Source of the DNA: a virus
Taxonomy: Duplodnaviria > Heunggongvirae > Uroviricota > Caudoviricetes
DNA length: 64,000 nt
Virus record (IMG/VR): IMGVR_UViG_2880395615_000010
Reading direction: 5' to 3' (one strand)
Shown here: piece after piece, positions 39,001-42,000 of the stretch
Layout of the letters: the number at the start of each line of letters is the position of its first letter
Numbering within the stretch: the first letter of the stretch is position 1
Made by a program: the position numbers

Positions 39001-42000
39001 ATACTATCGGTCTTGGCAACAACGAATCTCTGGTGTACGGCGTGTTTCCCAACCAGGACGGCACATTCACCGCGATGACGTATACCAAAAGCAAAACGTT
39101 TAAAACCGAAAATGGTGCCCGTCGCTGGCTGGAAAGAAACTCAGGTGAGTGATATGGATTTCGACACAATCATGGAAAAGGCTTACGAAGAATACTTCGA
39201 AGGTCTTGCCGACGGCGAAGAAGCTCTCGGCTTCAACGAATTTAAACAGGCGCTTTCCAGTTCGGCAAAATCTAACGGCTGATAAGCGAAACAGCACCGC
39301 GAGGAATCAGTATGCAGAAACGAGAACCCGTCATCATCGCGCCAGACTATACCGATGATGAACTTTATGAGTGGATGCGCCAGAAAATTAATGCAGCGCA
39401 GGATTTGAAATGGGCCAATGAAGCCAGGGCTAAGCAGGCTGAAAATCTGTCCGCTCTGGAGCAGGATATCACCAATCTGGAAAAAGCAGCGGCATTAAGC
39501 ATTGCCAGAATGATTACATACCCGCGTTAGTAGCTAATCAACAAAGCTAAGGTTAGTAATTAAGGAGTTCTCCACGGGTGAGGTGGAGTGCGTGCGCCGG
39601 ACACGGGTGAGCATCCGGCATTGACAGTTTACTGAAAGGATATTTCCCTGAAAAGTCAGACCATAACGCGAAAGCGCACGGCGAGGTAGCTGGTTCATAG
39701 ATAGCCTGTCGTTAAATTTTCGTCGACCGTGCGCTTCCGGTTGTGGCAATCCGCGAAATGGCGCGGCGGTAAGTATGGCGGGGTTATTCCTTCCCCCGTT
39801 GAGGACACCGGGTTGTCAGGTTGACCATACGCTTAAGTGACAACCCCGCTGCAACGCCCTCTGTTATCAATTTTCTGGTGACGTTTGGCGGTATCAGTTT
39901 TACTCCGTGACTGCTCTGCCGCCCTTTTTAAAGTGAATTTTGTGATGTGGTGAATGCGGCTGAGCGCACGCGGAACAGTTAAAACCAAAAACAGTGTTAT
40001 GGGTGGATTCTCTGTATCCGGCGTTAATTGTTAACTGGTTAACGTCACCTGGAGGCACCAGGCACCGCATCACAAAATTCATTGTTGAGGACGCGATAAT
40101 GGAAACGTTATTACCAAACGTTAATACGTCTGAAGGTTGTTTTGAAATTGGTGTCACTATCAGTAACCCTGTATTTACTGAAGATGCCATTAACAAGAGA
40201 AAACACGAACGGGAGTTATTAAATAAAATATGCATTCTTTCAATGCTGGCCCGTTTACGTCCGATACAAAAAGGATGCTGGCAATGAATACAGCATTTGC
40301 ACTTGTTCTGACAGTTTTTCTTGTTTCCGGAGAGCCAGTTGATATTGCAATCAGTGTTCACAGGACAATGCAGGAGTGTGTGACTGCAGCAACCGAACAG
40401 AAAATTCCCGGTAACTGTTACCCGGTCGATAAAGTTATTCACCAGGATAATAACGAAATCCCGGCAGGTCTTTAAAACAGTTCCGTAATAAACATCCGAT
40501 TTCATTCTTATATGCCAGCAATGGCAGGGATTTGTTCACCCTTAAATCTGTCATGAGGTTAAAACAAATGAGTAAAGTCTTTATTTGCGCTGCCATTCCG
40601 GACGAACAGGCAATAAAACAAGAAGGCGCTAAACCTGTAGCCACAGCCATTGAAGCCGGTGATGAACGTCGCGCCCGCGCAAAATTTCACTGGCAATTCC
40701 TGGAACATTATCCGGCTGCTCAGGACTGCGCTTATAAATTTCTTGTTTGCGAGGATAAACCCGGTATACCCCGCCCTGCCCTCGATTCCTGGGATGCTGA
40801 ATTTATGCAGGAAAACCGCTGGGATGAGGAGTCTGCTTCCTTTGTCCCGGTTGAGACTGAATCAGATCCTATGAACGTCACTTTTGACAAGCTGGCCCCT
40901 GAAGTACAGAACGCTGTCATGGTTAAGTTCGACACATGTGAAAACATCACCGTTGATATGGTGATTAGCGCGCAGGAACTGTTGCAGGAAGACATGGCAA
41001 CATTCGACGGACATATCGTTGAAGCGTTGATGAAAATGCCAGAAGTTAACGCCATGTATCCGGAGCTTAAGCTGCATGCCATCGGGTGGGTTAAGCATAA
41101 ATGTAAGCCTGGTGCCAAATGGCCCGAAATTCAGGCAGAGATGCGCATCTGGAAAAAACGTCGCGAAGGTGAACGCAAGGAAACCGGAAAATACACGTCT
41201 GTTGTTGATCTCGCCCGCGCCAGAGCCAATCAACAGCACACTGAAAATTCAACAGGAAAAATCAGCCCGGTCATTGCTGCCATTCATCGCGAATACAAGC
41301 AGACATGGAAAACACTGGATGACGAACTGGCCTACGCTCTCTGGCCTGGTGATGTGGATGCCGGAAACATTGACGGCAGCATCCATCGCTGGGCAAAAAA
41401 TGAAGTTATCGACAACGACCGCGAAGACTGGAAGCGTATCTCGGCATCAATGCGCAAACAGCCTGATGCCCTTCGCTACGACCGCCAGACTATTTTTGGC
41501 CTTGTCCGTGAACGTCCGATCGACATTCACAAAGACCCTGTGGCACTGAACAAATACATTACTGAATACCTGACTACAAAGGGCGTGTTTGAAGATGAAG
41601 GAAGAAATCAGAGCGCAACTGATACTCTCTCGTCGCCAGTACCAGAAACTGATGCAGTGGAAACGGCAATTCAGGACAACGAAAAAACCGAATGCAAAGT
41701 GGAAGTCGAACCATCTGTAGAGCGTGAGGGGCCGTTCTACTTCCTCTTCACCGACAAGGGTGGCAAAAAATACGGTCGCGCAAACAAACTTTCTGGTCTG
41801 GATAAGGCACTGGCTGCCGGGGCTACTGAAATCACGAAAGAAGAATATTTCGCCCGCAAAAACGGTACATACTCAGGTTCACAACAAAATACTGGTGCAT
41901 CTGACACGACCGCACAACCAGGGCCGGTAAAAGTTACCGCTGACGAAGTAAACAAAATTATGCAGGCAGCCAATATCAGCCAGCCTGACGCCGATGAACT

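Follow-up and report, generated by a model that had tools for sequence, protein, structure and literature searches.

A complete Qin-type dicBF operon with its DicF small RNA within an Escherichia coli prophage

The DNA analysed here, a stretch of 64,000 nucleotides (64 kb) from the IMG/VR virus record IMGVR_UViG_2880395615_000010, referred to as the window, carries a locus which by its sequence is a complete Qin-type dicBF operon, DicF included, within a prophage. This agrees with a preliminary description of the same DNA, all elements of the operon being found at, or next to, the places where they had been located. Very probably, a lambdoid prophage that belongs to the O55:H7/O157:H7 lineage and lies at tRNA-Ser has this block as its early-left (pL-equivalent) operon, controlled by a repressor, processed by RNases, and leading to filamentation on derepression. 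The operon is real, already known and ordinary; the relationship of its dicF-dicB spacer to the STnc100 RNAs may be the sole new point.

The function and regulation of this family are taken from four reports (PMC5069750, PMC6832061, PMC10448788, PMC7873438). DicF pairs with ftsZ mRNA and DicB works via MinC, and the operon is silenced by a repressor whose loss of action results in filamentation (PMC5069750, PMC10448788); the functions cited in the preliminary description (DicF on ftsZ, DicB with MinC, silencing by a repressor) agree with this literature. In addition, DicB protects cells against phage (PMC6832061), and many EHEC strains harbor four dicF copies, with DicF activating pchA and repressing stx2A (PMC7873438).

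Gene order and identity of the dicBF operon

The genes are arranged on a single strand (+) in the order ydfA-ydfB-ydfC-dicF-dicB-ydfD, that is, the gene order of Qin-type dicBF operons. The first three correspond to ydfA (38997-39152, 51 aa; Pfam DUF1391, 94.8 bits; named ydfA in E. coli O55:H7 DEC5B), ydfB (39154-39282, 42 aa; PHROG 2061, E 2.7e-26; syntenic with K-12 ydfB) and ydfC (39312-39530, 72 aa; PHROG 1744, E 1.6e-39), the latter bearing in its DEC5B copy the accession WP_001171942.1, which is also the K-12 YdfC accession. The ydfA-, ydfB- and ydfC-like ORFs reported earlier are thus present, at 38997-39530, as indicated by Pfam, PHROG and synteny; the interval formerly given for the operon, 39531-40475, does hold dicF, dicB and ydfD, but leaves the three named ydf genes outside. 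Downstream of ydfC we located an untranslated leader (39531-39871, 341 nt), the DicF sRNA (39872-39924, 53 nt; RF00039), the U-run of its intrinsic terminator (39925-39929), a structured dicF-dicB spacer (39925-40091, ~169 nt), dicB (40099-40287, 62 aa) and ydfD (40284-40475, 63 aa; named lysis protein in K-12).

The covariance model of Rfam DicF (RF00039, gathering score 48 bits) matched positions 39873-39924 with 76.7 bits (cmscan, E 3.6e-15) over model positions 1-52 of 52. The 53 nt and their flanks are 100% identical to E. coli K-12 dicF, with no base changes in the seed, and both pairing regions, namely the 5' end for xylR and the 3' part for ftsZ and pykA (PMC5069750), are those of the functional K-12 allele. 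In the MFE and centroid folds the terminator appears as a hairpin (39886-39924) followed by UUUUU (39925-39929, read from the sequence), and the 58-nt DicF region with its 3' terminator described beforehand is recovered as 39872-39924 plus the U-run.

DicB was recognized over residues 1-62 of 62 by Pfam PF05358 (127.4 bits, cut-off 27) and NCBIfam NF049927 (132.7 bits, cut-off 100). It is 89% identical to K-12 DicB, and 4 of the 7 differing residues (out of 62) lie among the last 8; MinC binding by this allele is assumed by analogy. The Shine-Dalgarno sequence of dicB, GAGGA at 40087-40091, is found at the base of the spacer helix. YdfD, 92% identical to its K-12 counterpart, matches Pfam DUF1482 (PF07358) with 87.6 bits against a gathering score of 25. 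Both the 62-aa dicB and the overlapping ydfD-like gene had been described correctly: they share ATGA at 40284-40287, an arrangement of the translational-coupling type. Overall, the identity of the operon is considered correct, as it is borne out by the covariance model and the profile HMMs, by annotated copies that are 97-100% identical in nucleotide sequence, and by the synteny with K-12 Qin.

A repressor of a different immunity type and its candidate operators

An adjoining repressor gene (38310-38729, + strand, 139 aa; PHROG 5736, transcriptional regulator, E 4.7e-70) shares the orientation of the operon, with cro-like and CII-like (YdaT) genes divergent from it. The repressor scored 24.1 bits against NCBIfam DicA (cut-off 101), resembles DicA at residues 89-134 only (~46 C-terminal residues, 33% identity), and has 39% identity with the protein named "CI repressor" in phage Tritos; no Pfam family was matched at E up to 0.01, and no LexA/S24-type peptidase domain was detected. 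It is, as these comparisons indicate, a CI/DicA analogue and not DicA. The gene divergent from it encodes a Cro/YdaS-like regulator (37928-38209, - strand, 93 aa), which matches PHROG 35 ("transcriptional repressor", E 4.9e-23), is labelled "transcriptional regulator" in the DEC5B annotation, and reaches 25.8 bits with Pfam YdaS_toxin, under the gathering score of 30. Hence, the DicA/DicC control of Qin-type operons is not found here, the divergent gene being YdaS-like and not DicC; judged from these similarities, the locus has a repressor and a cro gene that are analogous but belong to another immunity type.

Two TACC-N4-GGTA palindromes, putative OR-type operators, lie between the cro-like and repressor genes (38239-38250 and 38278-38289), and two perfect TACCCATGGGTA palindromes, which form a 16-bp inverted repeat (38774-38810), are located between the stop codon of the repressor gene and ydfA; we regard the latter as putative OL-type operators over the operon promoter, and the inverted repeat is possibly also the terminator of the repressor gene. 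The motif occurs four times in the 64 kb (38239, 38278, 38774 and 38799), always in the immunity region, against a chance expectation of 0.41 and with none of 100 shuffles reaching four. Occurring both at the operon promoter and between the repressor and cro-like genes, these candidate sites give the locus an OL/PL-like arrangement. A weak candidate promoter (38787-38815; TTTACT, 17 nt, TATCCT; 8 of 12 consensus positions) was inferred by reading and was not detected by the promoter scan. Silencing of the operon by the adjacent repressor, as previously proposed, holds in that a repressor gene does adjoin it; nevertheless, because this repressor is not DicA, repression is deduced from the architecture and the operator-like palindromes, and not from K-12 data.

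The leader and the stem upstream of DicF

The leader had been presented as a 340-nt structured untranslated segment. It is 341 nt long and untranslated, with no ORF of more than 37 aa on its + strand; its small ORFs measure 28-37 aa and include one of 31 aa (39729-39824), within which a 1-nt indel, in a C-run near 39796, separates otherwise near-identical copies. The leader is 99% identical to K-12, as is the full ydfC-dicB intergenic region of 568 nt. Its structure as a whole is not clear: folding of 342 nt (39531-39872, which extends the leader by one base into DicF) yielded a z of -1.9, with 3 of 100 shuffles equally good, so the predicted folding is no more than slightly above that of shuffles, while a local stem is clearly structured. 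The term structured applies to two long stems flanking DicF, the strongest structure being downstream of DicF and not upstream.

The upstream element is a long imperfect stem (39662-39745, + strand; 39662-39684 paired with 39723-39745) with an MFE of -37.4 kcal/mol (z -3.2, none of 200 shuffles as good). For covariation we used 94 distinct copies, retrieved by an exact DicF core pattern and 87-100% identical; in these, pairs of the stem are preserved by G-U or transition changes, for instance one pair that is UG in 70 copies, CG in 23 and UA in 1. By arithmetic from published data (PMC10448788), the 5' start of the 190-nt DicF species falls at about 39735-39740, on the 3' strand of this stem, which is predicted to be the probable RNase III substrate yielding the 5' end of the 190-nt precursor.

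We also weighed whether the leader, beyond a processing scaffold, might be a cis-acting antiterminator or attenuator setting the read-through past the DicF terminator into dicB, exo, xis and int, which we consider improbable. RNAalifold and single-sequence folding predict that 39760-39784 pairs with the 3' half of DicF (39902-39924), displacing the terminator hairpin; the leader from about 39650 on is conserved among otherwise mosaic loci; and no N-like gene is seen at the start of the operon, ydfA, ydfB and ydfC being the first genes after the putative promoter. However, the long-range helix shows no real covariation, the sole change on both sides being confined to 1 of the 94 sequences, and two of its pairs are lost, one in 14 sequences and the other in 16, leaving it a speculation only; moreover, the local terminator hairpin should form first kinetically, the leader matches no Rfam family, and processing with partial read-through explains the K-12 data (PMC10448788). 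A HK022 put-like antiterminator was likewise sought, by sequence similarity only: comparison of 38730-40100 with the HK022 early region (blastn-short) gave it no support, returning nothing beyond chance 10-11-mers, and HK022 had no match in the whole window. Other than DicF, Rfam searches of 38700-40600 at E up to 1 gave a sub-threshold STnc100 match and spurious miRNA matches; the spurious matches fall on the operator hairpin.

The dicF-dicB spacer and its likeness to STnc100

The spacer downstream of DicF folds with a z of -5.35, none of 200 shuffles being as good, and is predicted to form a closing helix of ~28 bp (39925-39952 with 40063-40091) surrounding three hairpins. The 3' end of the 72-nt DicF form, computed from published data (PMC5069750), corresponds to 39943, inside this helix, which in the model is the probable RNase III site giving that form. 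Variation in the helix preserves pairing: one pair is CG in 56 copies, UG in 34 and UA in 2, and the adjacent pair is GC in 54 and GU in 39. Support from covariation is thin for both stems. As a proof of the leader and spacer structures covariation was set aside, the copies being too similar and few pairs informative; further, most counts with both sides changed trace to one non-homologous Salmonella row.

Against Rfam STnc100 (RF02076) the spacer obtained 38.7 bits (E 2e-6), the gathering score of 47 not being reached, and a model built reciprocally from 47 spacers scored the STnc100 copy of the window at 42.6 bits. Membership of the spacers in STnc100 was rejected, since a scan of 13 other DicF loci yielded no spacer that reaches the gathering score; the reciprocal match argues for distant relatedness and not membership. 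The spacer and the STnc100/PasD prophage sRNAs are alike in architecture: both have a closing helix and internal hairpins, together with a GGUGAAU junction and the conserved string UCACC-NGGAGGCACCN-GGCACC, and the helices are kept by differing sequences. They differ in location, the spacer lying in the early-left operon right after a terminator and the STnc100 copy of the window in the late region beside phage tRNAs, and in the length of the closing helix (~28 bp in the spacer, ~11 bp in STnc100). Whether the spacer represents a diverged member of the STnc100/PasD family, with one common fold around the invariant UCACC-NGGAGGCACCN-GGCACC, and is thereby more than a passive RNase III hairpin, appears to us an evenly balanced question. 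If it does, an STnc100-like module would punctuate the operons of lambdoid phages, early-left and late alike, and either the STnc100 and PasD "sRNAs" would derive from modules that serve processing or stability inside an operon, or a second stable structured RNA, beside DicF, would be released from the dicBF transcript. A weaker possibility goes with this: pairing with the leader may mask both DicF pairing regions in the 190-nt precursor until RNase E cleavage.

Prophage context and completeness

On the 3' side of the operon come genes for an exonuclease, a DUF4224 protein and an integrase, and then a tRNA-Ser remnant. The exonuclease is full length (40568-43048, + strand, 826 aa), with a Pfam Rv2179c-like 3'-5' exoribonuclease domain at residues 642-814 (228.6 bits) and a partial match to exodeoxyribonuclease VIII. 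The DUF4224 gene (43107-43310, + strand), in the excisionase position, carries the DEC5B annotation transferred at 99.5% identity and lies directly upstream of int with a 1-base overlap, as read from the sequence. The tyrosine integrase is also full length (43310-44335, + strand, 341 aa), aligning without gaps along its entire 341 residues, at 94% identity, with an integrase that the DEC5B annotation gives as intact. Prophage A ends at a partial tRNA-Ser (44385-44448, - strand), an attachment-site remnant which aligns to the DEC5B tRNA-Ser region through 44448 and in which ARAGORN found no complete tRNA. A second prophage, with espJ/tccP-type cargo, begins after it; among 5426 complete E. coli genomes, not one contains the junction of both prophages at this remnant.

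Other genes of the prophage match PHROGs for a replication initiator, a Q-like protein and a CII-like protein, and DEC5B has terminase, portal, capsid, tail and lysis genes annotated over the region 98.6-99.5% identical to the window. The gene set of an intact prophage (integrase, excisionase-like gene, repressor/cro, initiator, Q, lysis, head and tail) is accordingly present, and from this it is plausible that the prophage is complete within the window. The earlier claim of an apparently intact prophage is made plausible by this gene set and the full-length integrase. Nonetheless, intactness is no more than plausible, because the window holds a single attachment site (the tRNA-Ser remnant), with the other end of the prophage beyond position 1, and because several pseudogenes are annotated in the near-identical prophage of DEC5B, as are several partial genes between the Q and lysis genes.

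Those DEC5B pseudogenes, together with the toxicity of the operon when expressed and its normal repression in K-12 (PMC10448788), might also suggest that the copy is a silent relic kept by descent, never expressed or functional in its host. We find this most improbable, as all ORFs are intact, DicF is the functional K-12 allele, repressor, integrase and exonuclease are full length, operator-like sites are present, and even the cryptic K-12 copy shows expression, both during stationary phase and in ~1% of cells (PMC10448788).

The nearest known systems include the dicBF copies in the O157:H7/O55:H7 lambdoid prophages of Sakai, EDL933 and DEC5B. The region 38900-40560, with genes annotated as ydfA, ydfC and dicB, is 100% identical in E. 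coli O55:H7 DEC5B, and identity amounts to 98.6-99.5% across the ~44 kb of the whole prophage, although the DEC5B tail-fibre region is cut by IS2, which the prophage of the window does not carry. The PGAP-style annotation of DEC5B lists the proteins but misses DicF. Matches to the block were found in 4764 of the 5426 genomes; the median number of places per genome is 2 and the maximum 10.

This prevalence bears on the possibility that the operon is kept mainly for the benefit of the bacterial host and not of the phage, with low-level or conditional expression providing phage exclusion through a DicB-MinC/ManYZ block of DNA entry and, in EHEC, virulence control by DicF (pchA/LEE at low oxygen, stx2A repression). 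In the same direction point the higher conservation, relative to K-12, of the DicF non-coding region (99%) than of DicB (89%), the phage protection conferred by DicB (PMC6832061), and the expansion of dicF to four copies in many EHEC, with pchA up and stx2A down (PMC7873438). Conversely, the operon is also present in the isolated functional phages Tritos and mEp460_evo81 (PMC10448788); at the position of lambda kil, a role in the phage life cycle would explain it equally well, and prophage abundance alone can give high prevalence. We hold host benefit as possible but somewhat short of likely, and as an extension that does not exclude our main explanation of a repressor-controlled, RNase-processed early-left operon.

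Discussion

According to the mechanism that we propose, in the lysogen the 139-aa repressor would bind the TACC-N4-GGTA sites, the two over the promoter (38774-38810) presumably keeping the operon off. Inactivation of the repressor, probably via an antirepressor as with DicA because no self-cleavage domain is detectable, would give rise to one transcript comprising ydfA-ydfB-ydfC, the leader and dicF. Transcription would partly end at the DicF terminator, the remainder continuing through dicB, ydfD and the exonuclease gene as far as the excisionase-like and integrase genes. RNase III is expected to cleave the long stems flanking dicF, with RNase E trimming the 5' side to the 53-nt DicF. The K-12 processing is transferred to the window because the ydfC-dicB intergenic region is 99% and DicF 100% identical to K-12; furthermore, the stems at 39662-39745 and 39925-40091 contain the published RNase III ends as computed, that is, the 190-nt 5' end (PMC10448788) and the 72-nt 3' end (PMC5069750). 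With Hfq, DicF would then pair with the ftsZ, xylR, pykA and manX mRNAs, and would act on pchA as well in EHEC; DicB would recruit MinC, blocking FtsZ rings and inhibiting ManYZ; and YdfD would be lytic. The expected net effect of derepression is a cell-division block, manifested as filamentation, and the exclusion of some phages.

Current understanding is unchanged by this dicBF copy, and its importance lies mainly in correct annotation, as an RNA-aware annotation adds a real regulator, DicF. In the EHEC lineage each extra dicF copy enlarges the pool reported to tune LEE and Stx at low oxygen (PMC7873438), and DicB can alter phage susceptibility (PMC6832061). Under a non-DicA repressor, the copy would respond to induction signals unlike those of the K-12 copy, which bears on which copy is expressed. 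The novelty implied earlier for a non-cryptic context does not stand, dicBF having already been published in O157 prophages and functional phages (PMC5069750, PMC7873438, PMC10448788) and appearing in the Tritos record: multiple dicF or dicBF copies are known in different O157 prophages (PMC5069750, PMC7873438), and dicB and dicF are carried by the functional phage mEp460_evo81 (PMC10448788).

Compared with K-12 Qin, gene order and spacing are alike, as are the predicted stems at the published RNase III sites, and YdfC is identical, to judge by the accession that its DEC5B copy shares with K-12. Homology begins just 38 nt upstream of ydfA, and the promoter/operator region and the repressor of Qin belong to another immunity type (DicA/DicC). 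In addition, the exonuclease and integrase genes, full length in the window, are truncated by IS2 in Qin; K-12 ydfE is a truncated remnant of the exonuclease gene, the K-12 homologue being interrupted by IS2.

Phage Tritos (OV696610), which along with mEp460_evo81 is a deposited phage genome with dicF and dicB, is 97.2% identical over the 1661-nt query and has DicF annotated as misc_RNA. The order is again alike (repressor, ydfABC-like ORFs, DicF, dicB, ydfD, exonuclease, excisionase, integrase), whereas the Tritos repressor, 39% identical to that of the window, is of another immunity type, and Tritos DicB is the K-12 allele, unlike that of the window.

No N/nut system was recognized in the operon of the window. 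Its likeness to lambda pL is that of an early-left operon under repressor control which has exo, xis and int at its end, and which combines a host division inhibitor with an RNase III-sensitive hairpin beside a ribosome-binding site; in lambda the division inhibitor is Kil, while in the operon described here this place is taken by an sRNA and DicB.

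Composition and setting of the operon

The region 38400-41400 was read directly and its ORFs were listed, and the whole window was scanned against Rfam at gathering thresholds. The dicBF operon named in the preliminary description is real and had been read correctly: its ydfABC-like ORFs, leader, DicF, dicB and overlapping ydfD were all recovered by ORF, Rfam, Pfam, NCBIfam and PHROGs evidence. On the plus strand, ydfA (38997-39152; Pfam DUF1391, 94.8 bits) is followed by ydfB (39154-39282) and ydfC (39312-39530), both with PHROGs matches, by a 341-nt leader (39531-39871) whose largest listed ORF has at most 37 aa, and by DicF (39872-39924) with a five-T run at its 3' side (39925-39929, read from the sequence). 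A 169-nt spacer separates this run from dicB (40099-40287, 62 aa; 127.4 bits Pfam, 132.7 bits NCBIfam), whose stop shares ATGA with the start ATG of ydfD (40284-40475, 63 aa; Pfam DUF1482, 87.6 bits). Scores for DicB, YdfA and YdfD were far over the cut-offs, and DicF matched over the full model length (39873-39924; 76.7 bits, gathering threshold 48). Its alignment is identical to K-12 DicF, so the seed changes that would have contradicted the first reading are absent.

The dicBF block forms the early-left operon of prophage A, which is lambdoid. Upstream lie the repressor gene (38310-38729, 139 aa, same strand as the operon), a divergent Cro/YdaS-like gene and a CII-like (YdaT) gene, and past these a replication initiator, a Ren-like gene and a Q-like antiterminator; downstream are a full-length exonuclease (826 aa), of which K-12 ydfE is a remnant truncated by IS2, a DUF4224 gene, an integrase (341 aa; gapless 94% identity to an integrase annotated as intact) and a truncated tRNA-Ser. 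Window 1-44448, including terminase, portal, capsid, tail and lysis genes, is collinear with the prophage of E. coli O55:H7 DEC5B (98.6-99.5% identity). The DEC5B tail-fibre region is interrupted by IS2, whereas the window counterpart lacks it (window 1-2356 compared with 18667-22358 of locus L132, the DEC5B copy), the two prophages being otherwise 98.6-100% identical. Given the full-length integrase and exonuclease, this collinearity and the missing IS2, it is reasonable, judging from sequence, to call prophage A apparently intact, as had been proposed; the integrase, structural and lysis genes agree with this, but the window does not extend to the far end, and several partial genes are annotated in DEC5B between Q and the lysis cassette.

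The window start falls within NleG/DUF1076 effector cargo, and prophage A terminates at the truncated tRNA-Ser (44385-44800 region), where a second prophage directly adjoins, with espJ/tccP-type effector genes at its near end. No sequence bridging the junction turned up in 5426 complete E. coli genomes, and thus the tandem arrangement is absent from that collection. The late region (29360-29875, minus strand) holds three phage tRNA genes, Arg-tct, Arg-tcg and a CAT-anticodon tRNA (Met according to ARAGORN, Ile in the DEC5B annotation), followed by a full STnc100 copy, with iraM adjoining on the opposite strand. A hok/sok-type toxin-antitoxin locus lies within prophage A at 34120-34295 (minus strand; sok RNA, 117 bits), and hokD is annotated at its DEC5B equivalent.

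Repressor, putative operators and mechanism

Identity of the adjacent repressor with DicA was rejected (24 bits against 101 on the NCBIfam DicA model), the likeness being confined to the last ~46 residues (33% identity); the CI of Escherichia phage Tritos is 39% identical. Homology to K-12 starts only 38 nt before ydfA, which indicates that the promoter/operator region was swapped together with the repressor. The 64-kb window has exactly four copies of the palindrome TACC-N4-GGTA, all of them in the immunity region: at 38239 and 38278 in the repressor/cro intergenic region (span 38239-38289), and as two perfect copies of TACCCATGGGTA at 38774 and 38799, between the repressor stop and ydfA (span 38774-38810). 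By chance 0.41 copies would be expected, and four were reached in 0 of 100 shuffles. This layout is as expected of OR-/OL-type operators and supports repression by the adjacent repressor; the palindromes are likely the operators of this non-DicA protein, to which binding is putative. The two OL-like copies together form a 16-bp hairpin resembling a bidirectional terminator, which could terminate the repressor transcript.

The best-supported mechanism is the published one (PMC5069750, PMC6832061, PMC10448788), carried over by near-identity. Loss of the repressor would allow transcription from a pL-like promoter, part of the transcripts ending at DicF and the rest reading through; DicF, released through the action of RNase III plus RNase E, would repress ftsZ and other mRNAs with Hfq, while DicB, with MinC, would block Z-rings and ManYZ, leading to filamentation and phage exclusion. 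For the EHEC lineage, activation of pchA and repression of stx2A by DicF are described in addition, together with an expansion to four DicF copies (PMC7873438).

RNA structure and processing

Leader plus first DicF base (39531-39872, 342 nt) folds marginally better than shuffles (z -1.9). Within it, 39662-39684 is predicted to pair with 39723-39745 as an upstream stem (z -3.2; 0/200 shuffles as good), and the spacer forms a downstream helix of ~28 bp (39925-39952 with 40063-40091) enclosing three hairpins (z -5.35). In K-12, a 190-nt DicF species gets its 5' end from RNase III and the 53-nt form arises through RNase E (PMC10448788), and a 72-nt form results from RNase III processing of full-length mRNA (PMC5069750). 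Computed onto the window, the 190-nt 5' end (~39735-39740) and the 72-nt form end (39943) fall within the predicted stem and helix, respectively.

Genome and viral collections yielded 131 DicF loci, and an alignment was made of 94 distinct copies, which at 87-100% identity are too alike for strong covariation statistics. Substitutions at paired positions mostly preserve pairing: one upstream pair is UG in 70, CG in 23 and UA in 1 copy, and one downstream pair is CG in 56, UG in 34 and UA in 2, its neighbour being GC in 54 and GU in 39. Upstream of ~39650 many loci diverge, but conservation extends from this point across the spacer, so that stem, DicF and spacer constitute the conserved module. 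The dicB Shine-Dalgarno GAGGA (40087-40091) sits at the helix base; hence, on the model of the lambda N leader, cutting by RNase III could change dicB translation or stability as well.

A leader acting as a cis-antiterminator would be a quite improbable alternative. Folding does offer 39760-39784 a partner in the DicF 3' half (39902-39924), a pairing that would replace the terminator hairpin, and both RNAalifold and the 190-nt precursor fold give the leader segment GGCGCGGCGGUAAG...GGCGGGG as the DicF 3' partner; however, across the 94 copies this pairing lacks real covariation and some pairs are broken, and 38730-40100 has no resemblance in sequence to the HK022 put region. The predicted pairing could mask DicF in the precursor.

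Relation of the spacer to STnc100

At relaxed thresholds the spacer matched Rfam STnc100 with 38.7 bits (E ~2e-6), below the gathering score of 47, which the spacers of 13 other loci likewise do not reach; membership was consequently rejected and distant relatedness is reported. A covariance model made solely from 47 distinct dicF-dicB spacers picks up the bona fide STnc100 copy of prophage A (29360-29549, minus strand; 132 bits) with 42.6 bits (E ~1e-10). In the alignment of both RNAs, a closing helix and three hairpins are built from differing sequences with compensated helices, and junction strings are conserved (GGUGAAU; UCACC-NGGAGGCACCN-GGCACC, i.e., UCACC..GGAGGCACC..GGCACC). A 2026 preprint joining STnc100 with PasD does not mention DicF or dicB.

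Comparison with known dicBF copies

Some DicF loci have the spacer without a following dicB, and IsrK and C4 antisense RNA genes lie downstream instead, ~0.2-0.4 kb away in L057 (1796-2260) and ~1.1-1.3 kb in L103 (4337-5650); the DicF-spacer module is thus joined to varying downstream cargo. An unannotated 247-nt stretch of Aeromonas phage AP1 (MT713136.1, 254-kb record; 249906-250152), 98% identical to window 39862-40108, comprises DicF and the spacer and could reflect contamination or recent transfer. Exact DicF cores in L008, L009 and L010, metagenome-bin contigs labelled Veillonella parvula, Collinsella sp. and soil 'Proteobacteria bacterium', are probably from mis-binned E. coli prophage contigs.

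The block 38900-40560 (1661 nt) is 100% identical to DEC5B, where ydfA, ydfC, dicB and DUF1482 CDSs are annotated and DicF is not. It is matched in 4764 of the 5426 complete E. coli genomes (median two places per genome, maximum ten), one place covering at least 80% of it in 2766. K-12 Qin, a cryptic prophage, shares the gene order and an identical DicF, differs at only six positions in the 568-nt ydfC-dicB non-coding region, and encodes DicB and YdfD with 89% and 92% identity. Tritos carries the block at 97.2% identity (phage collection), flanked by CI repressor, exonuclease, excisionase and integrase, with DicF annotated as misc_RNA. The operon and its processing, and its presence in multiple O157 prophages and in functional phages, are already published or deposited, and the dicBF finding is therefore known; to these known systems our analysis modestly adds a non-DicA immunity type with identifiable putative operators, predicted stems coinciding with published cleavage sites, and an STnc100-like spacer.
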